The notes: generated by a model from the letters alone, not told the origin. A stretch of 64,000 bases of DNA from Blastocatellia bacterium (GCA_035560235.1 DATMAG010000049.1:24300-88299), one strand, 5' to 3'; counted from the first letter of the stretch, positions 4,080 to 54,424 are shown. Numbers and translations: made by a program.

Positions 4080-6701
4080 ATGACGAGAAAGGCTGACTCT
4101 TCCAGAATGTTTGTCGTGCTGATGTTCATCAGCCTGCTGCTCAGCGCGCAGCGCGCTGCTCGTTCCGCCGGACAGGCAGCGCCGCCATCGCAGTCAGGCG
4201 TGGAATTCTTCGAGAAAAAAATTCGTCCGGTTCTCGCTGAAAGCTGCTACGGCTGCCACAGCGCGCAGGCGAAGAAACCAAAAGGCGGGCTGATGCTCGA
4301 TTCACAGGCCGCAATGCTCAGGGGCGGCGCATCAGGTCTGCCTGCCATCGTCCCCGGCGATATTGAAAAAAGCCTGCTCATCAAGGCGATTCGTTACAGC
4401 GATGCAAAGTTGCAGATGCCGCCCACAGGCAGACTGCCCGATCAGGTCATCAGGGATTTTGAGGAATGGATCAGAATGGGCGCGCCCGATCCGCGCAGGT
4501 CAGAACCTGCTGCCGCCGCTGCCTGGTCGCCTTACGATTACAACGAAGCAAAAAAATTCTGGTCATATCAGCCAGTCAAAGACTCGCCACCGCCGCAGGT
4601 CAGAAACACTGCCTGGGCCAGATCACCGATTGATCAGTTCATCCTCGCAAAGCTTGAAGAAAAAAATCTCAGGCCGGTTGGCGACGCCGACAAACGCACG
4701 CTGATTCGTCGCGCCACATTCGATCTGACCGGGCTGCCGCCGACGCCTGATGAAGTCGAAGCCTTTCTGAACGACAAATCACCGGACGCTTTTGAAAAGG
4801 TGGTTGACCGGCTGCTTGCTTCGCCTGCTTACGGCGAGAAATGGGGCCGTCACTGGCTCGATGTCGTGCGTTATGCCGACACCGCCGGAGACAATTCTGA
4901 TTACCCTGTCCCGGCGGCTTATCGCTATCGCAACTACGTCATCAAATCATTCAATCAGGACAAGCCATACGATCAGTTCATCCGCGAACAGATTGCCGGT
5001 GATCTGCTGCCCGCAAAGACTGAAGCTGAAAAATATGAAAGGATCATTGCCACGGGCTATCTGGCCGCTTCGCGCCGCTTCGGGTCGCGCAACAAGGAGA
5101 TGGATCTGACGATTGACGACACGATTGACAACCTCGGCAAAGCCTTTCTCGGCCTCAGCACCAGTTGCGCGCGTTGTCACGATCACAAGTTTGATCCGAT
5201 TCCGATGCGTGATTATTACGCCCTCTACGGCATCTTCAACAGTTCGCGCTATTCCTTCCCCGGCGCTGAAATTTATCCGCACCCGGCTGAAATGGTCGCG
5301 CTCGCATCAGGCAAAGAGGCCGAGAAGTTTTACAAGTACCAGAAGGAACTGAGCAGCCTCGATGACCGCAAGGAATTTCTGACCGCTGAAAAAGGCTTCG
5401 CCGCGCGCAATAAAAAACTGAAGGAACAACAGGCGCAGAACGCAGGCAGCGAAAACAAAGCCGCAAACGCGAACAACCAGAGCGGCAACCAGGCTGAAAC
5501 GAAAAAGCCCGAACCGCAAAAAGAACCTGCGAATGAACTGAAGCCTGCTGACTTTGATCGTGACGCCGACATCTGGGGCCGCGCCGGAAAGACCACGCGA
5601 ATGCCTGAAGAGGTTGAAGCTGAAATGAAGCAGGTCAGGGCGCGCGTTCTCGAACTGCACGCGGCTCCGGTCAAAGTTGACAAGGCTTATGCCGTGACTG
5701 AGGGTCTGCCCGCTAATGCCCGCATTCATCGCAAGGGCGAGCGCAACAACCTGGGCGATGAGGTGCAGCGCGGCTTCCTTACAATTCTCGGTGGTCAGAA
5801 AGTTCCCGCTGATTACAAAGGCAGCGGACGCGATCTGCTGGCCGGATGGATCGCTGATGCGAAAAATCCGCTGACCGCGCGCGTGATGGTCAATCGCATC
5901 TGGCAATATCATTTCGGCAAGGGCCTGGTGCAGACACCCAACGATTTCGGCACACGCGGCAAAGCGCCGACGCATCCTGAACTGCTCGATTACCTGGCCG
6001 CGCGCTTTATTGAATCAGGCTGGTCAGTCAAAAAGATGCACAAGCTGCTGATGCTTTCGCGCGTCTACCAGATGGCCAGCTCTGACGACGCGAAGAACGC
6101 TGCCATTGATGTCAGCAATGATTATTTGTGGCGCTTCAATCGCCGCCGCCTGCTTGCTGAAGAGTTCCGCGACGCGGTGCTTTTTGTCAGCGGCACGCTT
6201 GATCGCACGATGGGCGGCGAACATCCGTTTCCGCCCGAATCAACCTGGCATTTCACGCAGCACGAACAGTTTTTCGCCACTTATGAAACGAACCGCCGCA
6301 GCGTGTACATCATGCAGCAGCGGCTCAAAAAACATCCGTTCTTTGAAGTCTTCGACGGAGCCGATCAGAACTCAACGACTGACAAACGCAGCGCCAGCAC
6401 AACGCCGGTGCAGGCGCTCTACCTGATGAACAATCCGCTGATGCACGAACAGGCCGATCATTTCGCCGTGCGCGTCGGAATGGCCTTTGACACCGTGCGC
6501 GAGCGCATTGATTACGCCTTCCGCCTGGCTTACGGGCGCCCGGCCAGACCTGACGAAATCAAAGAGGCACAGGCTTATCTGCAACAGGTGCGGCAGGATT
6601 TGCAGGCCGTCAACACTCCGGCAGAACGCCTGAACCGCGCGGCGCTGGCCAGTTATTTACGTGTGGTGCTGAGCAGTAATGAGTTTCTGTATGTTGATTG
6701 A
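4080..6701 (+). CDS. PSCyt1/DUF1549/DUF1553 family protein (planctomycete cytochrome c domain protein)
   Basis: A signal peptide is followed by an N-terminal CYGCHS (CxxCH) motif. The conserved DUF1549 and DUF1553 regions follow (...WGRHWLDVVRYADTAG..., ...SCARCHDHKFDPIPMRDYY..., ...LTARVMVNRIWQYHFGKGLV...). The protein is 873 aa. Confidence 0.7.
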   Translation: MTRKADSSRMFVVLMFISLLLSAQRAARSAGQAAPPSQSGVEFFEKKIRPVLAESCYGCHSAQAKKPKGGLMLDSQAAMLRGGASGLPAIVPGDIEKSLLIKAIRYSDAKLQMPPTGRLPDQVIRDFEEWIRMGAPDPRRSEPAAAAAWSPYDYNEAKKFWSYQPVKDSPPPQVRNTAWARSPIDQFILAKLEEKNLRPVGDADKRTLIRRATFDLTGLPPTPDEVEAFLNDKSPDAFEKVVDRLLASPAYGEKWGRHWLDVVRYADTAGDNSDYPVPAAYRYRNYVIKSFNQDKPYDQFIREQIAGDLLPAKTEAEKYERIIATGYLAASRRFGSRNKEMDLTIDDTIDNLGKAFLGLSTSCARCHDHKFDPIPMRDYYALYGIFNSSRYSFPGAEIYPHPAEMVALASGKEAEKFYKYQKELSSLDDRKEFLTAEKGFAARNKKLKEQQAQNAGSENKAANANNQSGNQAETKKPEPQKEPANELKPADFDRDADIWGRAGKTTRMPEEVEAEMKQVRARVLELHAAPVKVDKAYAVTEGLPANARIHRKGERNNLGDEVQRGFLTILGGQKVPADYKGSGRDLLAGWIADAKNPLTARVMVNRIWQYHFGKGLVQTPNDFGTRGKAPTHPELLDYLAARFIESGWSVKKMHKLLMLSRVYQMASSDDAKNAAIDVSNDYLWRFNRRRLLAEEFRDAVLFVSGTLDRTMGGEHPFPPESTWHFTQHEQFFATYETNRRSVYIMQQRLKKHPFFEVFDGADQNSTTDKRSASTTPVQALYLMNNPLMHEQADHFAVRVGMAFDTVRERIDYAFRLAYGRPARPDEIKEAQAYLQQVRQDLQAVNTPAERLNRAALASYLRVVLSSNEFLYVD

Positions 6702-6962: not shown

Positions 6963-7001
6963 CAATCCGTGTTCCATTCAGCATTGATTGAGAGAGTCGC
7001 T

Positions 7002-8372
7002 ATGAAACCTGATAATCCATCCCGTCGCCAGATGCTTCGCTCGCTGTTCAGCGGTTCAATTCTGATGCCCGCTGTTTTCTCGCACCTGCTCACCGCCGAA
7101 GCGCGCGGCGAAGATAATCCGCTCGCGCCCAAAGCTCCGCACTTTCCGGCCAAGGCAAAAAGGGTGATCTTTATCTATCTGCCCGGCGGCTTCTCGCACG
7201 TTGATTCGTTCGATTACAAGCCGAAGCTGATTGATGATGCGAAAAACAATCGTCTGTACCAGGGCAAGCGCATCCTGCTGTCGCCGCTGTGGGAGTTCAA
7301 ACCGCGCGGCAAATCAGGCGCGATGATCAGCGATCTGTTTCCGCATATCGCTGAATGCGCCGACGACATCTGCCTCATCAATTCAATGCATGGCGATCAC
7401 AACGATCATTTTCAGGCGACGCTCGGCATTCACACCGGCTCGGTCACGTTCAAGCGTCCGAGCATCGGGTCGTGGGTCAGTTACGGCCTCGGCACTGAAA
7501 ATCAGAACCTGCCATCATTCGTCGTGCTTGCGCCGCAACTGCCTTACACCGGCGGACAAATCTGGGATTCAGATTTTCTGCCTGCCGTGCATCAGGGCGT
7601 GCGCGTCGTTGCGGGTGAAGAGCCTGTTCCGAATCTCAATCGCCGTTCTCCTTCGCCACAAATTCAGCAGGAAGAACTGAGCCTGCTTGAACGCTTCAAT
7701 CGGCGTCACCTGCAGACACACGCCGCCGATCCTGAGTTGTCGGCGCGCATCAAAACCTATGAAACGGCCTTCGGCATGCAGCGCGAAATGCCTGAGGTTT
7801 TAGATCTGTCGAAAGAGACTGACGCGACGCTGAAGCTGTACGGCCTCGAACGCGGGCAGACGAAAGGCTTCGGCTGGCAGTGCCTGGTCGCGCGCCGAAT
7901 GGTTGAACGCGGAGTGCGTTTCATCGAACTGATTGATGTCGGTGCCTCGAAAAACTGGGACGCGCACGGCGATATGAAGACTCACGAACCGCTCGCCCGC
8001 AACGTGGACAAAGCCACCGCCGGATTGCTGAAGGATCTGAAATCGCGTGGCCTGCTCAATGACACGCTCGTTGTCTTCACCACTGAATTTGGTCGCTCGC
8101 CCACGGCTGAAGGCGATTACGGGCGCGGCCATTTCAATACGGTCTTTTCATCGTGGCTCGCAGGCGGCGGCATCAAAAGCGGGATCGTCTACGGCAGGTC
8201 AGATGATTACGGGATGAAGGTTGCTGAGAATGAATGCCACGTGCATGACTTTCACGCGACGATTCTGCACTGCCTGGGCTTCGATCACACGCGGCTGACC
8301 TTCCGGCACGGCGGGCGCGATTTCAGGCTGACGGATGTGCACGGCAATGTGGTGAAGGCAATCCTCGCCTGA
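7002..8372 (+). CDS. DUF1501 family protein (sulfatase-like fold) with Tat signal
   Basis: A Tat motif SRRQMLRSLFSGSILMPAVF is present. Conserved DUF1501 regions include ...VIFIYLPGGFSHVDSFDYKP..., ...NSMHGDHNDHFQAT... and ...WDAHGD... The ORF starts at 6969, but I prefer the ATG at 7002. This is the usual partner of DUF1549/DUF1553 proteins. Confidence 0.7.
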   Translation: MKPDNPSRRQMLRSLFSGSILMPAVFSHLLTAEARGEDNPLAPKAPHFPAKAKRVIFIYLPGGFSHVDSFDYKPKLIDDAKNNRLYQGKRILLSPLWEFKPRGKSGAMISDLFPHIAECADDICLINSMHGDHNDHFQATLGIHTGSVTFKRPSIGSWVSYGLGTENQNLPSFVVLAPQLPYTGGQIWDSDFLPAVHQGVRVVAGEEPVPNLNRRSPSPQIQQEELSLLERFNRRHLQTHAADPELSARIKTYETAFGMQREMPEVLDLSKETDATLKLYGLERGQTKGFGWQCLVARRMVERGVRFIELIDVGASKNWDAHGDMKTHEPLARNVDKATAGLLKDLKSRGLLNDTLVVFTTEFGRSPTAEGDYGRGHFNTVFSSWLAGGGIKSGIVYGRSDDYGMKVAENECHVHDFHATILHCLGFDHTRLTFRHGGRDFRLTDVHGNVVKAILA

Positions 8373-21097: not shown

Positions 21098-21125
21098 AGG
21101 CAATGAAAAAGGGGATGGCGGCCCA
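21098..21125 (-). terminator. rho-independent terminator of the histone H1-like gene
   Basis: The minus strand reads GGGGATGG-GCCGCC-ATCCCC followed by TTTTTC, a GC stem plus U-tract, about 35 nt downstream of the stop. Confidence 0.65.
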
Positions 21126-21159
21126 TCCCCTCAGCGATCATGAATGATCAGATCGAAGT

Positions 21160-21288
21160 TATTTCTTCTTTGCGGTCGTCTTCTTCGCCGTCGTCTTTGC
21201 TTTGGCCGGAGCCTTCTTGGTTGCGGTGGACTTGCTTGCAGTCTTCGTCGCAGCCTTCTTCGTCGTGGTCTTCTTTGCCGTTGGCATA
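21160..21288 (-). CDS. small lysine/alanine/threonine-rich histone H1-like DNA-binding protein (42 aa)
   Basis: My own translation is MPTAKKTTTKKAATKTASKSTATKKAPAKAKTTAKKTTAKKK. An AAGGAG Shine-Dalgarno sequence lies 8 nt upstream of the ATG, an AT-rich promoter region lies upstream, and a clean terminator lies downstream. It is absent from the ORF track because it is under 60 aa. The Arg-rich track ORFs at 21131..21313 and 21144..21332 are off-frame shadows of this gene. Confidence 0.55.
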
Positions 21289-21596
21289 ACTGTCGTCTCC
21301 TTTTAAAAAACACCCCGACTACAAGATATTGACCTCAGATTGTCCTTGTAGCCAGGGAGCAGTTACATACATTGGGTGGTTATATAGTTCTTCCTGACAC
21401 TGTGTGTCAACATTTTTTTCTGATCACGCTGAAGCGAGGCAGTGAACAGAATAACTTCATGCGAACACCTCTCTGAAGCAATGAATGGCAAGTGGCAGCG
21501 AAGGGGCTGAAAACTTTTGTGGCGGGGCGAGAATGACAGAGGCGAGCCTTGTCACAGGCTCGCCTCTGTCGTGTGGTTTATTTCAATCAGACCGAA

Positions 21597-22436
21597 TTAC
21601 TGTTTGGGTTTGTCAGGCCTGCATCTCGGATCAGTCGGCGGACACTGACCATCATACAGCACGCCGGTGCAGACAGTCCGGCCTTCAATCTCAAACGGGA
21701 TGCCGCCTTTGGGACAGCGCGGATCTGTCGGGGTCTTTGCAGTTGAAGGCAGGCCGACCCCAAACAGGGGCAGGCCGGGAATGATCATCTGATTCGGAGT
21801 CGGAATCCCGGCAATGATGACGCTCTTGTCGTAGGTTTCAATGCCGTAATAGAAGCGGATCAGATGATCCTTGCTGCGGCTGACAACGCCGACGAACGGG
21901 CCGAATTCGCTGCTGCCGAGCGCCGGCTCCGAATCCTTCTTTGCATCTTTGCTGCTGCTGTCAAGCGAAAGATCGGTGGCTGGCATTGCCAGTGCCTGAC
22001 CGAGAATGCCTGGCGGCGGCTGCTTCATCGTGTTGACCCAGGCGAGCGCCAGTTCCTTCAGCACCGGATCGCCCATTCGCACCAGTCGCCAGTCGCCCTT
22101 GAGGGTCATCGGATCCTTCAGCGCCGACGGGCGCAGGTAACGCTTCGAGGCGGCAACCGGATCGAGTTCGGTCAGTTGTTCCAGGCTCGTCGGATACTGA
22201 TTGTTGTGTTCTCTGGCAAAGCGCGCAATCGCGTTGGCGATCTGTTCGCCGCGATAGAACATCTCTTCCTCGCGCTCGCGCTGCATGTCGTGCCTGAGCG
22301 ACGGGAGCGCCGCAGCAATGAAGATCAGCGAGATCGTCATCCCGGCAAGCAGCGCGACCATCGCGTAACCTGCTTCGTGACGACGTGAGGAACGCGGCGA
22401 GTGAAGTGAAGTCGCTCTGCGGATCGTGTTGCTCAT
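21597..22436 (-). CDS. pseudopilin-like protein (GspG/PulG-like fold) with atypical N-terminal segment
   Basis: The N-terminus ...HEAGYAMVALLAGMTISLIFIAAALPSL is a hydrophobic helix. It is followed by ...EEEMFYRGEQIANAIARFAREHNNQYPTSLEQLTE..., which resembles the GspG/PulG helix-loop region (compare E. coli GspG ...YRLDNGRYPTTEQGLQALV). It lacks the canonical G-F-T-L-I-E prepilin motif, having Ala at position +5. Confidence 0.45.
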   Translation of the reverse strand: MSNTIRRATSLHSPRSSRRHEAGYAMVALLAGMTISLIFIAAALPSLRHDMQREREEEMFYRGEQIANAIARFAREHNNQYPTSLEQLTELDPVAASKRYLRPSALKDPMTLKGDWRLVRMGDPVLKELALAWVNTMKQPPPGILGQALAMPATDLSLDSSSKDAKKDSEPALGSSEFGPFVGVVSRSKDHLIRFYYGIETYDKSVIIAGIPTPNQMIIPGLPLFGVGLPSTAKTPTDPRCPKGGIPFEIEGRTVCTGVLYDGQCPPTDPRCRPDKPKQ

Positions 22437-22475
22437 CGTGACTGCCTTTCTGCGCTTCAGCGCAATCAGAACCCA

Positions 22476-23312
22476 TCAACTGCCTTCGCCGCTGAACGGC
22501 ACGCGATGGCGGATTTTGATGTTGGTGTCTTCGATTTCAATCTCCTGCGGAGTAATGCTGATTAGCTTCCAGTGACCAGGCTGATTGTTTCGTCTGTCCA
22601 GAATGGCATCCTTGCGCACGTAAATCAGATCTTCTTCGAGATCGAACTTGACCACAGCGGTCGTCACTCCGTCCTTGACGATCATGCCGAGATACTTGTA
22701 AGGCGGCGCGGGTGGCGGGGTGACGTTGAGGTTGAAGACGTTCGAAAAGAGCTTCGGGTCGTTTGCGCCGCGCACTTCAACCGGCAGCGAACCCGGATTG
22801 GCAATGCTCGCGGCAGGCACAGTTACCTTGAGCTGCGAATCGCTGACGAAGGTTGTCTTGAGCTGCCGCCCGGCAATGAAGACGACCGCATCAGACGGGA
22901 ACTTCGCGCCGAAGAGCGTCATCGTGAAATCGCCGGTGCGACCGATGACTCCGGCAGGATTCAGCCCTGAGAGCGTGATCGGCGGCGGGATCGGCGGCGG
23001 TGTTGGCGGCGGCGGTGTTGGTGTCGGCGGCGGCGGATAGACGAAGATGTTGCGCCCTGCGCCCGGCTCCTGCGCGCGGCTGGTCATCGCCGCAAGCTCG
23101 AGCGGCTTGTCAATCACCGGCAGTTCGTTCTTGTTCGGCGTCGGGGTCGGCGCCGGATTCTTTGACTTGCCCGCCGTCTGCCCGCTCTGCGATTTGTTCG
23201 GAGTTGAAGGCGTATCTTCCTCAGAGAAGAAGTTGTAATAAAGCACTCCGCCGAGCGCGGCGAGCAGCGCAACCATCAGGATCAGTTTCTTGTTGTCCTG
23301 CGTTAAGTTCAT
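22476..23312 (-). CDS. membrane-anchored proline-rich protein with an IPT/TIG-like domain (possible PilP/GspC-like component)
   Basis: MNLTQDNKKLILMVALLAALGGVLYY is an N-terminal anchor. It is followed by a PPPPTPTPPPPTPPPIPPP linker and a beta-rich domain (ITLSGLNPAGVIGRTGDFTMTLFGAKFPSDAVVFIAGRQLKTTFVSDSQLKVTVPAASIANPGSLPVEVR). The position after the PilO-like gene suggests a PilP-like role. Confidence 0.4.
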   Translation of the reverse strand: MNLTQDNKKLILMVALLAALGGVLYYNFFSEEDTPSTPNKSQSGQTAGKSKNPAPTPTPNKNELPVIDKPLELAAMTSRAQEPGAGRNIFVYPPPPTPTPPPPTPPPIPPPITLSGLNPAGVIGRTGDFTMTLFGAKFPSDAVVFIAGRQLKTTFVSDSQLKVTVPAASIANPGSLPVEVRGANDPKLFSNVFNLNVTPPPAPPYKYLGMIVKDGVTTAVVKFDLEEDLIYVRKDAILDRRNNQPGHWKLISITPQEIEIEDTNIKIRHRVPFSGEGS

Positions 23313-23360
23313 GACTACCTGCTTTCGTCAGTTCCAGCGCCTGCGCGAGCCCGCAGATGC

Positions 23361-24197
23361 TTACTTCTTTCCCATGGCCTGAGTCGGACCTGTTCCGGCC
23401 ACGGGCGAGGGCACAGCAGTGGCCGGATAGATAAACGCCCGCAGGCCTTCAGGCTTTCGGAAATATGCATCGAGTTCAATCTTGAGCGCGATGTTCTGCG
23501 TCCCCGGATCAGGGATGTTGCCGATGGCGCTCGGCACGATGCGCCCCTTGATCTGCCGCGTCTTCTCATCCACGCCCTGAAACGCGACCGCGCTGATGAT
23601 CAGGAACTGTTTGCTGCGTTCGAGGTCGTAGATGAATTTGCGCAGATTGCGATAATCGCCTTCGACCGCCGTATCAATGCCGAGCGAGGGATAAACGCTC
23701 AGGTCGCGGCTCAGTTTCAGCGGCGCAGGCGCAGAGCTGCTGCCGGGTTCGGCATCGGGCGACAGAGTGGGCGTGGCCTCAGCCAGTTCCGAACCCTTCG
23801 GCTGATAGGTAAAACCCGGCGTCATCAGGCTGTGCGCTCTGGCCAGCTGATTGATCTCCGTGATCATCTGCGTGTGACCCGTCACGCGATCCTTCAGCAT
23901 TTCTTCAAAATCGGTCAGGCTCTCCAGAATATTCTCCTTGTGTTCGCGCTGTCGCCTGAGCGCATCGGCCTGCCGGGCCTGTTCGGCGATCTTCGTTTCA
24001 GCCGTTTTCAGCCGGGCCTTCAGATCGGCGATCTCGGAATATCTGGGCTGAATCTTCGTCAGATAAAAGAACGCGACGAACGAAGCAAAAAGGATGGCGG
24101 CGACGAGAAAGACGCTTTCAACCAGTGTCAGACGCAGGCCGCTGAAAAAGCCGCGCACGCTGTCGAGCAGATCAGAGGTATTGAATCGAGCAGCCAT
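23361..24197 (-). CDS. PilO/GspM-like inner-membrane pilus or secretion assembly protein
   Basis: A short cytoplasmic N-terminus is followed by a single TM helix (LVESVFLVAAILFASFVAFFYL) and a periplasmic coiled-coil (IADLKARLKTAETKIAEQARQADALRRQ). Its start overlaps the stop of the upstream PilN-like gene. Confidence 0.5.
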   Translation of the reverse strand: MAARFNTSDLLDSVRGFFSGLRLTLVESVFLVAAILFASFVAFFYLTKIQPRYSEIADLKARLKTAETKIAEQARQADALRRQREHKENILESLTDFEEMLKDRVTGHTQMITEINQLARAHSLMTPGFTYQPKGSELAEATPTLSPDAEPGSSSAPAPLKLSRDLSVYPSLGIDTAVEGDYRNLRKFIYDLERSKQFLIISAVAFQGVDEKTRQIKGRIVPSAIGNIPDPGTQNIALKIELDAYFRKPEGLRAFIYPATAVPSPVAGTGPTQAMGKK

Positions 24198-24853
24198 TAC
24201 TTCTGTCCTCCCTTCGCCACCTGATTGCCAGGCACCGCCTGACTGACGCGGCGCGGAACCGGCGGGTAGTAAGTGACCGCCAGTTCAAACTCGACCTCTT
24301 CAGTTCCCTCAAGGATGTTCTCCTTGCGCGCAACCACATAAAACTGGCCGGACTGATTGAAGGTGTCCATCATCTTCACGACCTCGGTGTAATTCCTCCC
24401 GGTAACTTCAAAGGTCAGTGAGACGGCCTTCGGCGCATCATCGTTGCTGACGGTGACGGCGCTGCCGCTGCCGACATTCTGCTTCTCCTCGATCTTGCTG
24501 AGCGCGATCTTGCGCACGCGCACGGTGGGTGGAATCAGCCGTTCGATTTCATTGAACAGTTGTGACCACGAGAACGCCTTGCGCTGAATCAGATCCCTGG
24601 CGGCGAGCATTGAGAGCGTCTGTTCCGGCGTCAGCACCGGCACGACGCCGCCGTTCGTTTCCAGCTTTTTTACTTCTTCCTGCTTCTTCCTGACTTCGGG
24701 TTCAAGGCGGGCAATTTCGCGGTCGAGGTCGTTGATCGTTTCAAGCGTTCTGAAGCCGACCAGCGACGAGACTGCGAAGATGAGCAGAATCGCCAGCCAG
24801 AAGAGCCGTCGGTTCCGAAACGGTCTGCTGGAAAGATTAACTAAAGGTTTCAT
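24197..24853 (-). CDS. PilN/GspL-like inner-membrane pilus or secretion assembly protein
   Basis: The N-terminus MKPLVNLSSRPFRNRRLFWLAILLIFAVSSL has a PilN-type NL..P.R motif and a TM helix. A coiled-coil region follows (DLDREIARLEPEVRKKQEEVKKLE). Confidence 0.5.
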   Translation of the reverse strand: MKPLVNLSSRPFRNRRLFWLAILLIFAVSSLVGFRTLETINDLDREIARLEPEVRKKQEEVKKLETNGGVVPVLTPEQTLSMLAARDLIQRKAFSWSQLFNEIERLIPPTVRVRKIALSKIEEKQNVGSGSAVTVSNDDAPKAVSLTFEVTGRNYTEVVKMMDTFNQSGQFYVVARKENILEGTEEVEFELAVTYYPPVPRRVSQAVPGNQVAKGGQK

Positions 24854-25145
24854 GATTGCTTGTCTGTGGTCTCTGTTTATTTGTTCAGCGGGGCGGCGGG
24901 TTTCAGACTATAACACAAAGACCAGTCAGGCCAATAGCTGATTATGGCTGCCTCCAACACCAGCAAAGATCAGTCGGGACAACCAATTGGCACGGGAGAA
25001 GGGCTGCAGACGAGAGATAAAAAGGAGGTGATTCAGCCCCGCCCCCGCGCGACTGATCACCTCACACAAACTACACACAGCCGTTCTCACGCCGTATCTG
25101 AAAAAAGGTTCCCGAAGTTTTTCATTTTGTTCCATCGCCGGACGA

Positions 25146-27005
25146 TTGCGATCAGCGCTGGTGACAGGGCATACTGCGGACCAGACCTTCACGAAAACCA
25201 GATGCGCGCCTGGCGACAGCCGGACAGGAGATCGCTTGCGAAACTCAGTGACCACAAAATACCTCAGCATCACGCGCGGACTTTCGGGCGCGCGCTGGCA
25301 GCTTGCGGTCTGCGATGAGCTGCTGCTGCAGCGGCTGCGTCGGGAAACCAGAGAGCATCCGCTGCTGCTGCGCTGCCTGATCAATCGCGGAATCACGGAA
25401 CCGGCTGAAATCGCGCACTTCCTCTCGCCCGATTTCAGCACGCATCTGCACGATCCGGCGCTGCTGCGCGATATGCCTGTTGCGGTCGAACGGCTGCACC
25501 GCGCCGTACGCGAAGGCGAGCGCGTGCTGGTCGTCACGGATTTCGACGTTGACGGGACGACTTCGAGCGTGATTCTCTCAAACGTGCTGCGCCTGATCGG
25601 GGGCGACAATCTGATTACCTGCTACGTGCCGGATCGCTTCACCGAAGGTTACGGCCTCTCAAAGCAGATCATCGAAAAGGCCGCCGCCGAGAACTTCCGC
25701 GTGATCTTAACTGCCGACATCGGCATCAAGTCGCACGCCGAGGCGCGGCTGGCGCGACAGCTCGGGATTGATCTGATTATCTGCGACCATCACCTGCCTG
25801 ATGGCGAGGATGTTCCGGCCGACGCTTACGCGGTGCTCTGTCCCAAAGGCTCGTCGGGCACTGATTATCCGAACAAACATCTGGCAGCCTGCGGCGTATC
25901 GTTGAAACTGGCTGATGCGCTGCTCGATGGTCACGCGAAACGGACGGCAATTCTGGCTTCGCTGGCGAAGCTGACGGCCATCGGGACAATTGCCGATCTG
26001 GTTGATCTGTCAGCGAGCGAGAACCGCGCAATCGTCAGGCACGGGCTGCGCGCGCTCAACGAACGCAGCAGCAATCCCGGTCTGCGCGCGCTGCTCGAGG
26101 TAGCCGGAATCGGGCGCCCGCTGACCGCTTACGACATCAGTTTCAAGATCGGCCCGCGCATCAACGCCGCCGGGCGCATCGCGCACGCCAGCACAGTCCT
26201 CGACCTCTTTTCGGCCCGCACCGACGCCGAAGCCCTGGCCCTCGCGCGACAGCTTGATGAACTCAATGCCGAGCGGCAGCAGATTCAGCACGCGCTGATG
26301 GAGAAACTTTTCGCGACAGTCAGACAGCAGACTCCGCTTGACCGGGTGCTGGTCTTTGCCGGATCGGAGCAGGAAGGCTTTCATCGCGGCGTGGTCGGCA
26401 TCGCCTGTTCCAGGCTGGTCGAAAACACTGGCCGCCCGACGCTCGTCTGCTCGATTGACGAGAAAGGCATTGCGCACGGCAGCGCGCGTTCGGTTCACGG
26501 CTTTCATCTCGTCGAAGCGTTGCAGAGCGTCTCCACGCTGCTGATCAAATTCGGCGGCCATCCGATGGCCGCAGGCTTCACGATTGCGGCTGACAGGATC
26601 GAAGAGTTCCGCTCCCGGCTGAATCAGTACGCTGAGGAGTTCCTGACCGAAGACAATCTTGCCCGCGCGTATGAGGCTGATGCTGAGATCCACTTTAACG
26701 AAATATCGGCTGAGACGATTCGCACCCTGGCCCGCCTGGAACCACACGGAATGGGCAATCCTGCGCCGCTCTTTCTGCTGCGCGATGTCGGGCTTCAGAA
26801 AACGGAGCGGCTGAAGGAAAAGCACCTCAAGCTTTTCGTCGGCGATAATGCGCGCCGGATTGAAGCCGTCTGGTGGAATGCCGCGCAGCATTGCCAGGCA
26901 CTGAACGGCGCGCCGCGAATCAGCCTGCTCGGCAGTCCCGAGATCAATTTCTGGAACGGTCGCGGAAAGCTGCAGTTCAAGGTCAAAGACGTGGCGGTGG
27001 GCTGA
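25146..27005 (+). CDS. recJ: single-stranded-DNA-specific exonuclease RecJ (DHH/DHHA1)
   Basis: ...[18 protein letters not shown]...[13 protein letters not shown]...[32 protein letters not shown]... plus the DHHA1 segment ...[11 protein letters not shown]... The annotated start is the TTG at 25146. The true start may be downstream, for example the GTG at 25248. Confidence 0.85.
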
Positions 27006-27110: not shown

Positions 27111-29444
27111 TTATTCGTCATCGTCGCTGCCTGCGGCGCGTTTGCCACGGCGTGTGCGCCTGCGAACCGGAGCCTTCTTCTCAGGTTCGACCGGGCCAAC
27201 CGTCGCGGGTTCTCCGCCAGCCGGAGCCGGAGCGCCAGCCTGGCAGATCGCCAGCTTGATGTGGCTCGTCTCGGTTGTGACGCCACCGGCACGCACGACG
27301 ATCCGGTTCGGATCAATCTGAATGCCGACGGAGCCGTCAGCCAGACGGTCGCGCACGTTCCTGGCCCGTTGCAGATCGAGACCATCTTTCTCCTTCTCTG
27401 AACGATAGCCATCAACGTAGAGCGTCGCCTGCGGATCGGCCTGCATCTGACGCGCCACATCCTGCAGAATCGACTTGCAGGCGTTGTCCACGCGCGCGCT
27501 GTTCTTCTTGAACATCGGACACGGCGTCAGACTTGAGCAGGTCGGCGGCGGCGGCGGCGCCTGATTGGTCGTCACCGTAGCCGAGCCGGTCGCGCTGCAT
27601 TCGCCAGCGGCGTCGCGGGCCGTGACCGTGACCGTGATGGTAGTGTTGTAACCCACACCGGTCGTATCAAGCCGCGCATTCGTGCCGCTGCCCGTGATCT
27701 GACCAGCCGAAGCCGTCCACGAGTAGGTCACGTTGCCGTAATTCTCGCCACCCGTTACACCCGGCGTTGAGAAGTTGACCGCCTGGCCGGGATCAACGCG
27801 GCTCGTGGCCGGAGTCACATCGAGACTGCTGTTGAAGCAGACCTTGAGCGGCGGGCAGTCTTCGACCGTGATCGTCTTTGTGTCGAAGGCCACGCAGCCG
27901 CAGCCGTCATCAACCTGCGCCGTCACCGTGTAGGTGCCGGGCGCGAGTCCGGTCGTATCGAAGGTCACATTCGCGCCTTCGCCGACAATCCTGCCGCCGG
28001 TCGTTGACCAGGTGTAGAGCAGCGTGTCGCCATCCGGATCGGAAGCATTGGCCCGCAGTGCCACCTTGTCACCCACGCAGACAGTGCTCGCCGAAGCCCG
28101 CCTGACCTTGTCTGAGCCGGGCGTCACAGCGCCGACTTCAAGCGTGATGGTCGGCGGATTGTTCGGCACAATCGGTTCCTCGCGCTTGTTGACGTGACCG
28201 ACTGAGATTCCGAAGATGAAGCCATCCGGACTGTGGACCTTGTCGAAGTTCTTCATCCAGTTGAGGTGACGCTGATAAGCGGCATTGATCGAGAACCAGC
28301 GCGTCGGAAAGATCTTTGCGCCAGCAACGAGGTCAACCGGATTGTTTCTGAGCAGCGTCGGCGTGCGTGAACCGACGTAGTAGGTTCCGCTGAGTTCAGC
28401 GATGAACTGCAGATACTGGCTGAGCGGGAAATCAAACCCGATGCCGCTGCGCACTTCATTTGGCAGATCGAGCGCGCGCTCGCTGCGGCCAAAGCCCTGA
28501 ATGACGCCGGTGCCGCCGGCGAGCGGGCCAAGCCGCATATCCTCTGCGCGGGGATCACCCTTCTTGATGAACCCGATGTTCCCGCTCAGATTGATGTGCT
28601 TGTGCAGTCGGCCATCAATGGCGGCGATCACGCCGTAATCAAAGGCTCCGGTGCCGCGCCCGCGCTCAAGCCCGGTGTTGAGTTCACGGGTGGTCGGGAT
28701 TTTAAGCAGCGGGATCAGCGCAAAGCCGAAAGGATTGTTCGGGCCGGTGAAACGAACCTTGCCGCCCAGCCAGACATCGCCGACGCCGGTTCCGGTGAAG
28801 CGTGAAAGGAACGGCACCTCCGGCGAATAGTTCGGCACCACATTCGGCGGCAGCGCAGGCAGGATGCCGCCCACCGGAGCGCCAAGTCCCGGATAAACTG
28901 CGGTATCGTTGCCGCTCGGTCGGGCCGCGAAAGGCCCGTACTGCGGAAGCCCCGTCACCGTGCAGGGACCGAAGAAACCGCCATTGCCACAGGGATCAGT
29001 CACTGTGTTGACCACCTGCCCCGCGCCGGTGCCGGCGGGAATGATGACCGTGCGGCCACCGGTCAGCGTTTTGGTCCGCACGTCAGGCAGATAAAATCCG
29101 CTGAGCAGCGCGGGCAGGCCGGCGGTAGTGATACGCTGTGCCTCGAAGTTAACGAAGAACTCGAAATGATCGCTGAATCCGACCTGAAAGTTAACGGGGT
29201 AGACCTGTCGTCTCAGGTCACCCGGATCACGATGAAAATGGTTGGCAAAGAAACCGAAATTGAACTCGCCCCTCCTCAGGGTCTGTGCATCGTAGACCGT
29301 GAAGAGACCAGTCCCGCCATTGACGGTGGGGGCCTGGTTACGGGGATCTTCAGTGGAGCGAGGTGTCTGAGCCTGAACCACAGTGCCGCCAAGCAGCAGC
29401 AGCACAACCAGCAGTCCAGCCATTCTTCTCGCGGAACTCATCAT
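27111..29444 (-). CDS. OmpA-family outer-membrane protein with N-terminal beta-barrel-like region, three PKD/Ig-like repeats and a C-terminal OmpA-type peptidoglycan-binding domain
   Basis: The signal peptide is [27 protein letters not shown], with the ATG at 29444 and a GGAGGAG Shine-Dalgarno sequence. The central region holds repeated modules such as ...[50 protein letters not shown]... The C-terminus ...[49 protein letters not shown]... is OmpA-like. Confidence 0.55.
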
Positions 29445-30097
29445 GTTTCTCCTCCTGGAAGTGGGTGAATCGTTAAAGCCAAGCAAGTTAATCAATCAAG
29501 TTAATCTGATGATGCCTGTACCTGCCGCGGACAAGCCTTACCGCATACAGCTTCTTATTGGGGGACTGTAAATAGTTGTCAATGATGACACTTTGATTTG
29601 ATTCGGCCAAAATCTATACGATAGGGTGTCTGGTGTCAATGTTAATCTCAACACACGTTTTGAGCGGCGGCTGAACACTTTCAGTGCAGTAATCGCACTT
29701 TCGCGCGGCCTGATGTGCGGATCAGTGAACCTGATCTTTTCCCCCTTCAGCCACTCTGAATCTGAGAGTCATTGCACCACCGATTTCAAAATTAATCGCA
29801 AAGGTGTCAATCCACGCAGCCCGGGGGGCCGGGCTGATTATCTGCACCGGGACTGTAAATTTCCGGCGCTTCAGGTAAGATTCCCGCGCACTGCCATCTG
29901 CGCTCATCGCGGCTTGAACACGCGGCTCAGGAACTCTGCCCATGTGGCGAATCGCTTCATTGTTCAGCGCCTCGCGCCTGCGCGGCTGCCGCAGGGAACA
30001 GAATTTTTCTGCGCGGACTGCTTTCATCCTGCCACGCCCGGCTGCAAAATACCGGTGCGCCTCCGGTCGCAAACATCGCAACATTCACACAACGCTT

Positions 30098-41025: not shown

Positions 41026-44000
41026 ATGTTGCGTCCACGTTACCCCCTCGCAGTTCTGGTCATCATCACGCTGCTGGCCTCGGCTGCCCTGTCACAAACC
41101 TTTCGTGGTGGCATCTCCGGCAGCATTACCGATCCGTCCGGCGCAGCTGTCCCCGGCGCATCCGTACAGCTTGTGCATGAAGGCACGGGGCTGACCCGCA
41201 ATCAGGAAACCACCAGCTCCGGCGATTTCACCTTTGCCGATCTGCCGCCCGGCTTCTACACGATCACCATTACCAAGGCCGGGTTCCAGACCCGGAAGAT
41301 GGAGAAGGTTGAAGTCGCCGTCGGCAAGGTCACCAGTCTGCCGGTCACGCTCGCCGTCGGACAAACGAGCGAAACCATCGAGGTGCAGGCTGCAGCCGCC
41401 ACGCTTGAAACTTCCAATTCCACGCTCAATGCTGTCGTCAATCAGCGCGCGGTGCAGGAGATTCCGCTCAACGGGCGCGACTTTCGCACGCTGCTTTACC
41501 TGACGCCGGGCTATAACCAGAGCGGTTCGATGAATGGCAATCGCGGCAATCAGAACAACTGGCAGATTGACGGCACCGACAACAATGATTTCTGGCACAA
41601 CGGCGAAGCCGTCAACCAGGGCAGCATTTCAGGCATCGCGGGCGTGCTGCTGCCGATTGAAGCGATTGATCAGTTCAATCAGCAGTCAGCCGGCGGCGGC
41701 GATTTCGGGCGCAATCCTGGTTCGCAGGTCAACGTCGCCCTGAAATCAGGCACGAACGAATTTCACGGCTCGGCCTACTACTTCAATCGCAACGAAGCCT
41801 TCGCGCTGCAATCGCCGTTCGTTCCGGTCGGAACTCCCGACAAGCTGCGCAACGAACAGGGCGGTTTTTCGCTCGGCGGCCCGATCATCAAAAACCGCCT
41901 CTTCTTTTTCCTCACCTATGAAAAGCAGAACTATGTGATTGCTGACCCGGTGCGCGGAACTGTCCCGTCCAACGCCTGGATTGATGTGGCCAAAGGCATC
42001 CTGCAAAAGTACAACGTGCCGGTGAATCCGGTCATGCTGGCCACTTTTCAGAATCTGTGGCCGTCACGCGGGGCTTCAGCTCCGGCAACAAAACTGAACT
42101 TCAATTCCGGCGATGATGACACCGGCCACAGCAACAACGGTGTCATCAAGCTCGATTACAACCTCAATTCAAAGCATACGCTCTCGGCGCGCGCGTTTCT
42201 CGGAACAGGTGAAGCGGCGCAGTTTGCCGGATCAGTTTACAAGGAATATTACCAGGTGGTGCCGAGTCGTCAGCATAACTTTGCCGTGATCTGGAACTCG
42301 ACCTGGACGCCGCGTCTTGTCAACCAGTTGCTGGCCGGAGTGAACTACTTCAACCAGACCTTTGACGATGCGGTTCACGCCGCCAATCCGGTTTCGTGGG
42401 GACTCAACACCGGCGTCACCAACCCGTCGAATTTCGGCGCGCCAACAATCAGCATCACCGGCTTCGACAACGGCATCGTCGGCGCGACTCCGCGTCTCGG
42501 ACGAATTGATGTGACCGGCCATCTGACCGACAACCTCTCGTACAACTTCGGCAGCCACGCGCTGAAACTCGGCGGTGAATTCCGGCGGGCGAAGCTCGAT
42601 GTGTTCTACTACCGCGAAGCGCGCGGGTCTTTCAGCTTCGACGGCAACCAGGGACCGTGGGCCAATGATCCGACGCTTGATCCGAAAGTTGATCCGCTCG
42701 GCGTTCAGAAAAAGGCCATCGCCGATTTTGTGGCGGGCATCATCGCCGCTGGCAGCGCCTCAATCGCCGTCGGTGATCCGCAGCGCGATTACTTCGTGAA
42801 TTCAGTTGATGGCTGGGCGCAGGACAACTGGCAGTACACGCCGCGTCTGAATATCAACTACGGCTTCCGCTACACCTACAACGGAAGGCTGCACGCGACG
42901 GGCAGCAAACCGATTGCGATCTTCAATCCGAAGTCATCAACCGGCCTCTCCATCGTAGGCAAGGACATTGAATCGCTCTATCCGGCTGACTACAACAACA
43001 TCGCGCCGCGTCTCGGTTTTGCCTATTCGCCAACGCGTGGCGGGAAGATGGTGATTCGCGGTCATTACGGCGTCTATTACGACATCGTCAATGGCAACCT
43101 GTTCATTGACAACCGCGCCGGCAGCGATTCCGGTCGCGGTGTCTCGCGCCAGCCGACCGGCCCGGCCCCGGTCTTCAGCGCCAGCAATCCCGGCACGGGA
43201 CCCAATGGCTCCGGCCCCTACACGATTCAGCAGGGAGTGCCCATCTTCGGTGGCGCGACGCCGCAGCCGCCGTTCGCAGTCTACACAGTGAATCAGAACC
43301 TGCGCTCGCCCTACGTGCAGAATTTCGGCGTGGATGTGCAGTATCAGGTGGCGAGAAACACGCTGCTGACGGTCGGTTATGTCGGCAACCAGGCGCGCAA
43401 GCTGGTGTACACGCACAACATCAATCAGATCAGGCCGAGCGTTGATCCGGCTGCCTCCTCGCGTCGCCCGTTCTTCACGCAGTTCCCGCAATTCCGCGGG
43501 ATCACTGAGATCGAGACGGCAGCCAATTCGAGCTACAACGCGCTTCAGCTTTCGCTGCGCACCTCAAGCTGGCGCAACCTCAGCGCCCAGTTCTCCTACA
43601 CGCTCGGACACGCGGAGGATGAAGTTTCAGCGCCGCGCAACGCCCGACCGACCGACAATTACAACCGCCGGTTCGACCGGGGCAATGCGGCCTTTGATTA
43701 CCGGCACGTCTTTTCAGGTTACGTGCTTTATGACGTGCCGCAGCTCGGCCACGCGCTGCCGCTGCTGACCAGAGGCTGGCAGCTCAACGCGTTCATCACG
43801 GCAGATTCCGGCACGCCGTTCACGGTCTTTGCCACCGGCGACTTCAGCCACACGCGCAACGGCGCTGACCGGGCGAATCAGACCGGCGATCCGTTCAGCG
43901 GAATCACGCAGCCGGCGACAGTCAATGGCCGCTACGTCAATGGCATTCGCTATTTCAACGGCTCGGCCTTTGTCAATCCGGCCCCCGGGACTTACGGGAC

Positions 44001-44259
44001 AACCAAAAGAAACCAGTACTACGGGCCGGGGTTCGCTTCAGTTGACCTTTCAGTCTTCAAGAACTTCAGGTTCAGGGAGCGATACACCCTGCAGTTCCGC
44101 TCGGAGATCTTCAATATCTTCAACCGGCTGAATATGGGCAATCCTGACGGATCAGTCGGCGGCGGGCTGATCGGCGGCACGCGTCACGGCGGCGATGCGC
44201 CTGGCATCGGTTACGGCGAACCGCGCAACATTCAGTTCGTCGTGAAATTCCTCTGGTAA
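41026..44259 (+). CDS. TonB-dependent receptor-like outer-membrane protein with N-terminal carboxypeptidase-regulatory-like domain
   Basis: The signal peptide is followed by ...TFRGGISGSITDPSGAAVPGASVQLVHEGTGLTRNQETTSSGDFTFADLPPGFYTITITKAGFQ... (a CarbopepD_reg-like domain). A plug-like region follows (...LNGRDFRTLLYLTPG...) and a long beta-barrel ends in an aromatic C-terminus. The protein is 1077 aa. Confidence 0.75.
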   Translation: MLRPRYPLAVLVIITLLASAALSQTFRGGISGSITDPSGAAVPGASVQLVHEGTGLTRNQETTSSGDFTFADLPPGFYTITITKAGFQTRKMEKVEVAVGKVTSLPVTLAVGQTSETIEVQAAAATLETSNSTLNAVVNQRAVQEIPLNGRDFRTLLYLTPGYNQSGSMNGNRGNQNNWQIDGTDNNDFWHNGEAVNQGSISGIAGVLLPIEAIDQFNQQSAGGGDFGRNPGSQVNVALKSGTNEFHGSAYYFNRNEAFALQSPFVPVGTPDKLRNEQGGFSLGGPIIKNRLFFFLTYEKQNYVIADPVRGTVPSNAWIDVAKGILQKYNVPVNPVMLATFQNLWPSRGASAPATKLNFNSGDDDTGHSNNGVIKLDYNLNSKHTLSARAFLGTGEAAQFAGSVYKEYYQVVPSRQHNFAVIWNSTWTPRLVNQLLAGVNYFNQTFDDAVHAANPVSWGLNTGVTNPSNFGAPTISITGFDNGIVGATPRLGRIDVTGHLTDNLSYNFGSHALKLGGEFRRAKLDVFYYREARGSFSFDGNQGPWANDPTLDPKVDPLGVQKKAIADFVAGIIAAGSASIAVGDPQRDYFVNSVDGWAQDNWQYTPRLNINYGFRYTYNGRLHATGSKPIAIFNPKSSTGLSIVGKDIESLYPADYNNIAPRLGFAYSPTRGGKMVIRGHYGVYYDIVNGNLFIDNRAGSDSGRGVSRQPTGPAPVFSASNPGTGPNGSGPYTIQQGVPIFGGATPQPPFAVYTVNQNLRSPYVQNFGVDVQYQVARNTLLTVGYVGNQARKLVYTHNINQIRPSVDPAASSRRPFFTQFPQFRGITEIETAANSSYNALQLSLRTSSWRNLSAQFSYTLGHAEDEVSAPRNARPTDNYNRRFDRGNAAFDYRHVFSGYVLYDVPQLGHALPLLTRGWQLNAFITADSGTPFTVFATGDFSHTRNGADRANQTGDPFSGITQPATVNGRYVNGIRYFNGSAFVNPAPGTYGTTKRNQYYGPGFASVDLSVFKNFRFRERYTLQFRSEIFNIFNRLNMGNPDGSVGGGLIGGTRHGGDAPGIGYGEPRNIQFVVKFLW

Positions 44260-54000: not shown

Positions 54001-54424
54001 TCTGCTCGAACGACTGCGAGACATCGGCGCTTTCAGTCTGCAGCAGCGGCGCTTCAGAAGTGACTTCCGCCGTCTCCGTAATGTTGCCGACCGTGAGCGC
54101 GGCATTCACGCGCAGCGTCGAGCCGGTGCTGAGCTGAATGTTTTCCTGCAGGTGTTTTTTGAAGCCCTGCTTTTCGACTTCGATCTTGTAAGTGCCGGGC
54201 GGCAGGTAAGGCATGACATAACCGCCGTCAGCATTGGTTTCGACATTGCGCGAAATGCCGGTGCTGATTTCCGTAATCGTCACCTTCGCCCCGGCCACTG
54301 CCGCGCCGCTCGAATCGGTCACCGTGCCGACAATCGAGCCGGACACGGCCTGCGCCAGCGTCAGCGATGAACTAAAGACGAGCACCAGCAGGGCCGTCAG
54401 AATGAGCCGCAAACTGCTTTTCAT
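51086..54424 (-). CDS. TonB-dependent receptor-like outer-membrane protein with N-terminal carboxypeptidase-regulatory-like domain
   Basis: MKSSLRLILTALLVLVFSSSLTLAQAVSGSIVGTVTDSSGAAVAGAKVTITEISTGISRNVETNADGGYVMPYLPPGTYKIEVEKQGFK... The protein is 1112 aa and paralogous to the 41026 gene. Confidence 0.75.
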   Translation of the reverse strand: MKSSLRLILTALLVLVFSSSLTLAQAVSGSIVGTVTDSSGAAVAGAKVTITEISTGISRNVETNADGGYVMPYLPPGTYKIEVEKQGFKKHLQENIQLSTGSTLRVNAALTVGNITETAEVTSEAPLLQTESADVSQSFEQKRIAELPINGRNFQSLITLIPGVVPSNASVGIFDNPQGTQFLQVNGQNNSANNFQIDGVDNNEPLLGLVVQIPPAEAIQQFSVSTSNYDAEFGRAVGAVVNVTTRPGSNQFHGSLFEFHNNSAFKARNFFNIVRNAQGKLTVPNAIKNQYGGTFGGPIIKNRTFFFGDYQGQNQRIGRTPQIATVPIQAWREGNFTGTTTIYDPNTGAANGSGRTAFQGNQIPTPRISPVAQNILKLLPLPNLPGTTNNYLPPAIPFKLDTQAFDVRVDHQFSDKTNFFVKYNYFQSTMADPAIFGDIGGPTAIGDFNSLANGKGRNQVVTLNGTHAFSPTLTTEARFGFTRYFLDARGPGFDKDLSQQVGISGSNENDPAHKGLAVIDIENFSTFGQSFNMPTINADNIFNWINNWTKVAGSHTLKWGADIRRLRMDRLQIQGISSFGPRGRFEFRPTVTALCTPNASGACVSSQTSLANSFASFLLGAPDRVGRAIFSTTPTNRTTHLFFFGQDTWQVTPRLTVNLGLRYEIYTPITSRLPAGQGNYDPETNNLLVAGVGQVGLSAGVETDWNNFAPRIGLSYRWKDKTVIRGGFGISYFTARFGFTGGTLSTSFPVIADQQIGVTGDFKPEGNFTSIPAFTPIAIPSSGIINPAPNLSLFAVPFKNNLPQVMSYNLTVQRELMQGLSLEVSYVGNKGDNQPFNKRLDASLPGTGTAGIPLNQKFGRTAQTTLRAYGVESYYNSLQVQLEKRLSRGISFGTSYTWSRSTDYTSNNGGLFNPIFLNLNYGPSDFDRTHTLTIHHTLELPFGPGRRWLSKGMAANILGGWQVNGILAAYSGRPFGVTMSNAALNGGPGNNQRPDQLRNPAISGNVGPGTTWFDVTAFANPIPAGATPRYGTAGRNSLRGPGFFNYDFSLFKNFQIREGIRVEFRTEFYNLTNTPKFNQPNGNFSQGSFGAVTSTINNAGEREVQFALRLLF

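Follow-up and report, generated by a model that had tools for sequence, protein, structure and literature searches.

Within a 64,000-nucleotide stretch of the metagenome-assembled genome of a Blastocatellia bacterium (GCA_035560235.1, DATMAG010000049.1:24300-88299; hereafter the window, in whose numbering all coordinates are given), we analyzed a compact cluster of genes related to the inner-membrane components of type IVa pili (T4aP) and type II secretion systems (T2SS). The ORF (open reading frame) listing of the window showed that exactly four co-directional minus-strand genes, g1 to g4, fill positions 21597-24853. These encode a PilN-like bitopic inner-membrane protein (g1, 24197-24853, 218 aa), a PilO/GspM-like bitopic inner-membrane protein (g2, 23361-24197, 278 aa), a PilP/GspC-type connector anchored by a transmembrane (TM) helix (g3, 22476-23312, 278 aa, without a lipobox Cys), and a pseudopilin-like protein with Tyr at position +1 and without the Glu at position +5 (Glu5) (g4, 21597-22436, 279 aa). 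The genes g1 and g2 overlap by 1 nt, while gaps of 48 nt and 39 nt separate g2 from g3 and g3 from g4, respectively. The recJ gene (25146-27005, plus strand; DHH, DHHA1, and RecJ_OB domains) is transcribed divergently from g1. An earlier note on this DNA, made from the sequence alone, had described the same four overlapping or closely spaced genes with the divergent recJ, and had stated that no PilM, secretin, ATPase, or platform gene lies in the window; the coordinates were confirmed, and Pfam scans of the large ORFs across the 64 kb identified no PilM, secretin, T2SSE, or T2SSF. Each of the four genes has many homologues and is a real gene.

The four encoded proteins

Scored alone, g1 stays below the Pfam thresholds, with 14.1 bits against PilN (PF05137; cutoff 22.8, E 0.05) and E 0.03 against PilN_bio_d. 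Among PDB sequences, the g1 family profile (A3; built, like that of g2, from syntenic orthologues) matches Thermus PilN best (4bhq, E 4.7e-5), and PF05137 is matched by 6 of the 32 family members (E ≤ 0.01), so the protein appears, from its sequence, to be PilN-like. Its N-terminus, which is short and cytoplasmic (MKPLVNLSSRPFRNRR), leads into a TM helix (about residues 17-37), after which come a coiled coil and a periplasmic domain of alpha/beta type (TM segments throughout this work were judged only from the sequence and from the helices of the AlphaFold2 (AF2) models, which are those of g3 and g4). Every lineage keeps Asn6 and Leu7 of this N-terminus without exception and Pro11 and Arg16 almost without exception, and the cytoplasmic consensus x-N-L-S/A-x-x-P-F-R-N-R-R is retained in lineages in which the four genes stand alone. 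This motif resembles in sequence the INLLP-type PilM-binding peptide of PilN. A g1 homologue adjoins PilM in at least 17 related loci, and in relatives the gene directly follows that of PilM.

The product of g2 alone reached 21.2 bits with Pfam PilO (cutoff 22) and E 3e-7 with NCBIfam GspM. Its family profile (A4) matched Myxococcus PilO (3jc8_O, E 1.1e-11), all 33 orthologues matched T2SSM_b (PF10741), and 16 of the 33 matched PilO (PF04350), which places the family in the PilO/GspM group by sequence and suggests a PilO/GspM-like identity for the window protein.

The third protein (identical to NCBI HWQ33173.1) gave a confident AF2 model (predicted local distance difference test score, pLDDT, 84.7). 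In this model, a TM helix (residues 5-29) is followed by a disordered stretch with the GRNIF segment (aa 86-90), a poly-proline spacer PPPPTPTPPPPTPPPIPPP (aa 93-111; 22980..23036, minus strand) comprising the string PPPPTPTPPPP, an IPT/TIG domain (aa 112-198; 22719..22979, minus strand), and a C-terminal HR/PilP-type beta domain (aa 205-273; 22494..22700, minus strand). The IPT/TIG assignment (PF01833) exceeds the curated threshold and agrees with an Ig-like fold, and the C-terminal domain is predicted to form the beta-sandwich of HR type known from PilP and GspC. Arg87, Asn88, and Phe90 of the GRNIF segment are invariant in 106 close homologues, and Phe90 in all lineages. The N-terminus (MNLTQDNKKLILMVALLAALGGVLYYNFF) contains no Cys and thus no PilP lipobox. 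The GspC layout (TM, HR, then PDZ or coiled coil) is not followed either, as TIG precedes HR and the protein ends 5 residues past HR. In the alignment of the g3 family, the TIG domain is a lineage-specific insertion, present in Blastocatellia-type and Chloracidobacterium orthologues and missing from the Acidoferrales ones and from that of locus L004. Thus, g3 is a PilP/GspC homologue, with this relation being detectable only at the level of the modelled fold; its anchor is GspC-like (TM helix, no lipobox), and the PDZ/coiled-coil tail of GspC is absent.

The fourth protein has no match in Pfam or NCBIfam, including N_methyl (PF07963) and T2SSG, and PF07963 is precomputed in only 2 of 120 of its homologues. 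It nevertheless carries a class III-like site E21-x-G23/Y24 (the slash marks the putative cleavage point), Pro45 (position +22), and an alpha1 helix spanning residues 22-76. A small alpha/beta head follows, and the protein ends in a 4-Cys tail (aa ~238-279, nt 21600-21725), which is found at the end of half of the orthologues; the string EEEMFYRGEQIANAIARFAREHNNQYPTSLEQL is also present in the protein. The Gly at -1, an approximately 20-residue hydrophobic alpha1N segment, and Pro22 are those of class III pilins. The AF2 model (pLDDT 80) shows a 55-residue alpha1 helix followed by the small alpha/beta head, i.e., a predicted pilin fold of GspG type with a long alpha1 packed on a beta-sheet. 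When g4 is aligned with pilin sequences from the PDB, the mature Phe1 falls on Tyr24. Furthermore, a profile-profile comparison with a canonical 148-aa pseudopilin, which is encoded beside the secretin in related clusters and has the N-terminus G/FTLLE... and a GspG-like C-terminus, gave 98.9 % probability (E 1.9e-17, 104 columns).

Among the homologues scored, 174 were found at E ≤ 0.001. A phmmer search with g4 against 1.84 billion representatives returned 536 sequences at E ≤ 1e-10, and all of those traced to a source came from Acidobacteriota. The 71 orthologues adjoining the PilP-like gene and having a recognizable site carry Tyr at +1 in 68 cases, Pro at +22 in 65, and Glu (56) or Gln (11) at -3; position +5 is Ala in 34, Gly in 22, and another residue in 15, but never Glu. 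For the other pilin genes of the same loci (n = 39; -3 was not scored), the corresponding numbers were 31 for Phe at +1, 32 for Glu at +5, and 35 for Pro at +22. Position +5 of the window protein is Ala28, and Glu5 was found in none of the 71 orthologues and none of 127 further representatives, while Gly23 (-1) is at least 90 % conserved in the family. It should be stressed that an automated annotation of the identical protein (P0001, 254 aa) begins at Met26 (start 22361 instead of 22436), which removes the conserved E21-x-G23-Y24 site; the longer ORF is supported, because residues upstream of Met26 are conserved in homologues.

Several further assignments of the earlier note were thereby borne out, i.e., a PilN-like and a PilO-like protein, a TM-anchored third protein (instead of a typical PilP lipoprotein) with a genuine IPT/TIG domain behind a poly-proline linker, and a non-canonical GspG-type pseudopilin lacking Glu at +5. 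The structure prediction that it had called for, carried out for g3 and g4, yielded the HR-type and TIG domains of the former and the pilin-type fold of the latter.

A second, orphan g4 paralogue (43 % identity, with G/YSLLA and QREKEEEMFWR) was noticed at locus L017 (9956-10819; MAG, i.e., metagenome-assembled genome, STL-ACI6, JAXLQP010000002.1), in the same MAG as locus L001. No pilus or machinery genes were found within 10 kb of it; it lies among rlmN, PQQ beta-propeller genes, and a gene for an enoyl-CoA hydratase.

The module in other genomes

For the comparison of gene context, species-representative genomes were scanned; one alignment (A1) was too divergent to serve as a query and a narrower one (A2) was used. 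This resulted in 73 loci, or 79 together with further look-ups, which were annotated by iterated hidden Markov models. Nearly all of them are titled Acidobacteriota, and the Firmicutes names of some binchicken MAGs were taken as mislabels. The titles in question ("uncultured Heliobacteriaceae", "Heliomicrobium", and "Clostridia", from binchicken co-assemblies) are those of L006, L012, L014, L018, L033, L034, L037, and others, which are GTDB-representative MAGs with a probably wrong taxonomy.

The comparison with related Acidobacteria, also proposed in the earlier note, revealed the order N-O-P-g4 on one strand in about 70 of the 79 loci. Homologues of the four genes, at 30-80 % identity, keep their length, motifs, and order in about 70 species-level genomes. 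In 49 of the 79 loci the module stands alone, without an ATPase, PilM, or secretin gene within +/-10 kb; examples are the window, L001 (g4 70 % identical), Chloracidobacterium UBA7656, and the closed 6.3-Mb MAG CP065005.1. The last of these has the same recJ, N-O-P-g4, galE arrangement as the window, though its g3 is only 45 % identical.

In other lineages, the orthologous module is part of larger clusters. The group of L037, L046, L048, and L053 has the order N-O-P-g4-T2SSF-T2SSE(MshEN)-Secretin, followed by two N_methyl pilins and PilM. In Acidoferrales, a sigma54 activator, three T4a-type pilins, a LolA-like protein, T2SSF, T2SSE, and PilM precede N-O-P-g4, and genes for a PilT-like ATPase and an SLT protein lie close by. 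Locus L004 reads T2SSF-T2SSE-PilM-N-O-pilin-pilin-P-Secretin-x-SLT-g4, so that the g3 orthologue lies immediately 5' of the secretin gene, which is the classic position of pilP. A 322-aa gene was identified as PilM from PF11104 and from source names. All T4aP/T2SS components except the prepilin peptidase thus adjoin orthologous modules in other lineages; no gene for this peptidase was seen in any fetched locus. The converse split was found at L085, where T2SSF, ATPase, secretin, pilins, and PilM occur together and N-O-P-g4 is not nearby; L085 is one of six loci from a metagenome scan and cannot be linked to a genome with a stand-alone module.

Three further observations concern these loci. In L003 (14500-16497) and L086 (14538-16486), both of Pyrinomonadaceae type, a 393-aa (PilT-sized) ATPase of the T2SSE family and then a Zn-ribbon protein are encoded about 4 kb downstream of the stand-alone module. 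The module-linked secretin of L046 (13763-16195, HR10-type lineage) has an unusual architecture, with N-terminal TPR repeats and STN before Secretin_N/Secretin and a weak cohesin-like C-terminal region. Adjacency to recJ was considered as a hint of DNA uptake and rejected, as it is limited to one clade (the window, L001, L005, and L087), and in other loci the gene preceding the module is secA or an FHA-GGDEF gene.

Interpretation of the module and its alternatives

Taken together, these results make it likely that g1-g4 form one operon, which encodes the periplasm-spanning alignment subcomplex, or assembly platform, of a type IV filament machine of the T4aP/T2SS class, characteristic of Acidobacteriota, with the motor, PilM, and the pore being encoded elsewhere in the lineage. 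In the Blastocatellia-type lineage the module has become a separate transcription unit. It is not a decayed operon and probably not a structure of its own. The g1 and g2 proteins would form a bitopic inner-membrane pair joined via their coiled coils and alpha/beta domains, in which the cytoplasmic N-terminus of g1 may recruit an actin-like PilM encoded elsewhere. The TM helix of g3 would anchor a connector whose GRNIF segment and rigid poly-proline spacer could span the periplasm, and whose C-terminal HR domain is expected to dock onto the N0 domain of the secretin. PilP is known to bridge PilQ and PilMNO (PMC10191384). Both the spacer and the TIG domain would make the connector longer and stiffer, and the TIG inserted in Blastocatellia-type lineages probably adds a further ring beside the secretin; a TIG-domain protein forms a belt around the secretin in Deinococcus radiodurans (PMC10828601). 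The g4 protein is best read as a derived paralogue of the GspG-like pseudopilin of the system, in which the Gly-1 site of peptidase type and Pro22 are retained. The ATPase, platform protein, PilM, secretin, and canonical pilins would be found at other loci in the lineage of the window.

As in the PilM-PilN-PilO-PilP systems of T4aP (P. aeruginosa, M. xanthus, and N. meningitidis), the PilN-like and the PilO-like protein of the module are distinct bitopic proteins, and the connector encoded next bears a beta domain of PilP type; moreover, the order PilM-N-O-P occurs in relatives, and a PilT-like ATPase and T4a-type pilins in the Acidoferrales loci. The module differs from these systems in the TM-anchored connector, which is not a lipoprotein and in the window has an inserted IPT/TIG domain, in the gene past "P", which encodes the Glu5-less pilin-like protein and not a secretin, and in the detachment of pilM and pilQ. 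With the GspC-GspL-GspM platform and GspG pseudopilin of T2SS, the module has in common a g2 family whose members all match T2SSM_b. Unlike in T2SS, PilM and PilN are separate proteins and not fused as in GspL, g3 has no PDZ or coiled coil after HR, no GspH/I/J/K set was seen, and g4 lacks Glu5. The Thermus thermophilus pilMNOWQ operon likewise has PilN and PilO homologues followed by a lineage-specific membrane protein, and Thermus PilN is the best PDB match of the g1 family, but the Thermus operon continues with a secretin. Finally, DR_1364 ("GspP"; PDB 8CO1), the protein of the D. radiodurans secretin belt, is a separate 155-aa outer-membrane IPT/TIG lipoprotein, whereas the TIG of g3 is fused into an inner-membrane-anchored PilP/GspC homologue, and no sequence-level homology between the g3 family and DR_1364 was detected in the search of the profile against PDB sequences.

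Several results weigh against this reading. For the genome of the window, of which only 64 kb are visible, the remaining parts of the machine were not found, and a PilM profile search aimed at the stand-alone Blastocatellia was swamped by Acidoferrum-type PilM proteins, of which it returned 120. Scored singly, g1 and g2 of the window stay under the curated Pfam cutoffs; the g3 family profile found no PilP or GspC among PDB sequences, and Foldseek with g4 gave no significant PDB match. From gene content, moreover, a pilus and a secretion system cannot be told apart, with the GspG-type pseudopilin and the GspC-like TM-anchored connector pointing to T2SS, and the separate PilM and PilN, together with the PilT-like and T4a-type pilin genes of the Acidoferrales loci, pointing to T4aP. 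The conserved Glu at -3 in the leader predicted for g4 (56 of 71) is, in addition, unexpected in a peptide that is merely cleaved off, which favours a static anchor over a filament subunit.

As regards the role of g4, we tentatively favour that of a first (cap or priming) subunit, which would be loaded on the PilNOP platform, with the static anchor as its nearest competitor. Since g4 has no Glu5, it would not be inserted beneath another subunit by the usual salt bridge between Glu5 and the N-terminus. The cap role is preferred because tip complexes have a Glu5-less cap pilin and assembly begins with them (PMC10191384). With the cap pilins of GspK, PilK, and PilX type, g4 shares a Glu5-less pilin N-terminus, a size larger than that of the major subunit, and the expected position as the first filament subunit (PMC10191384). 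It differs from them in the lack of a Pfam match of T2SSK type, in a fold closest to GspG, in being encoded with PilNOP and not with the minor pilins H/I/J, and in its Tyr1 and conserved Glu-3. Homology of g4 to GspK itself was considered and dropped, as there was no family match and the best fold match was GspG.

Alternatively, g4 might be an unprocessed, membrane-anchored pilin-fold protein, i.e., a stoichiometric fifth component of PilM-N-O-P (e.g., a docking site or gate for pilins) rather than a filament subunit, comparable with the archaellin-like, non-polymerising ArlF/ArlG. This is possible, if doubtful. It would account for a gene that always lies directly past the PilP-like one, often with a 4-nt overlap, and not among the pilin genes, for Glu5 never being present, and for the conserved Glu-3 (Gln in 11 of 71) and the Tyr in place of Phe at +1, which imply selection on the would-be cleaved leader. 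However, Gly-1 (at least 90 %) and Pro22 (65 of 71) are in register with true pilins, for which peptidase processing and pilin-type packing would be the simplest cause, and Glu5-less pilins are known as cap subunits (PMC10191384). We consider unlikely a wider formulation of this idea, in which g4 would represent an unrecognized class of Tyr1, Glu5-less pilin-fold proteins, obligate and stoichiometric members of the PilN-PilO-PilP platform, not filament subunits, that template or gate the entry of pilins, and in which the Blastocatellia connector would have captured a TIG ring similar to the Deinococcus GspP belt.

Of the three options left by the earlier note, a subassembly of the T4P/T2SS class stands, and the other two are not supported. 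A distinct envelope-spanning structure, independent of a type IV filament ATPase, platform, or secretin, could be read from the 49 of 79 loci without ATPase, PilM, or secretin within +/-10 kb, and from their absence across the 64-kb window. It is improbable, as three other lineages have orthologous modules inside complete clusters, the complementary half of such a cluster is seen at L085, and genes of type IV pili are commonly scattered. Moreover, lineages with a stand-alone module conserve the cytoplasmic N-terminal motif of g1 and the HR domain of g3 as well as linked lineages do, which argues that the partners of both are retained. Very improbable is a decaying remnant of a pilMNOPQ operon, for which the missing pilM and pilQ and the window proteins scoring under Pfam thresholds could be cited, given four intact, tightly spaced ORFs that keep length, motifs, and order at 30-80 % identity in about 70 species-level genomes, confident AF2 models of g3 and g4, and a recJ-flanked arrangement that persists between genomes with g3 only 45 % identical.

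The kind of machine is already known. New are a phylum-wide, unannotated family of Tyr1, Glu5-less pseudopilins tied to pilNOP, a PilP/GspC hybrid that has a TM anchor and a TIG insertion, and a pilNOP detached from pilM and pilQ. For the questions of how a filament is begun by type IV filament machines and how pilins and the PilMNOP platform communicate, a Glu5-less pilin paralogue hard-wired to pilNOP and a TIG domain fused into the PilP/GspC connector are natural, testable variants. The four proteins carry annotations such as "hypothetical", "IPT/TIG domain-containing", or "PulG", and the automated call of g4 drops its diagnostic N-terminus. Because all four escape Pfam/NCBIfam thresholds, pilus and secretion machinery of Acidobacteriota is under-called by surveys based on standard models.

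Boundaries and flanking regions

The intergenic region between recJ and g1 comprises about 300-350 bp and contains a putative sigma70-like promoter (TTGGCC-16-TATAGT with a TG extension; 24907..24934, minus strand; a consensus match only) about 54 nt 5' of the g1 start. No convincing sigma54 -24/-12 motif was found upstream of g1 in a by-eye search. A 17-bp GC-rich hairpin (21533..21572, no strand assigned), located 25 nt past the g4 stop and lacking a clear T-run on the minus strand, is likely to mark the end of the operon. Scans of the window for tRNA genes and Rfam families were empty.

Downstream of g4 lie a 42-aa Lys/Thr/Ala-rich ORF, galE, rsmD, coaD, an aminotransferase gene, and the RNase R gene, with the block from galE to RNase R being checked only via the precomputed annotation of the syntenic locus L001. 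The 42-aa ORF (MPTAKKTTTKKAATKTASKSTATKKAPAKAKTTAKKTTAKKK; 21159-21287, minus strand), between g4 and galE, is preceded by a good ribosome-binding site (GGAG) and has a separate hairpin with a T-run (21109-21132), and its product looks histone-H1-like or like a low-complexity basic protein. At the same site, L001 has an 80-aa gene without a Pfam match. Beyond recJ lies the gene of a 794-aa protein that has PKD and OmpA domains (27111-29495, minus strand), and the same gene also adjoins recJ in L001.

Farther away, at 4080-6701 and 6969-8372 (plus strand), there is a Planctomycete-type pair, i.e., PSCyt1/PSCyt2/PSD1 (DUF1549/DUF1553, cytochrome-like) followed by DUF1501, which is found near the module in L005 too. 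Two very large outer-membrane barrels with CarboxypepD_reg and OMP_b-brl_4 domains (41026-44259, plus strand, 1077 aa; 51086-54424, minus strand, 1112 aa) are encoded among genes of sugar/inositol catabolism (MIOX, GH4, PfkB, and aldehyde dehydrogenase), and barrel genes of a similar type recur in the flanks of several related loci.

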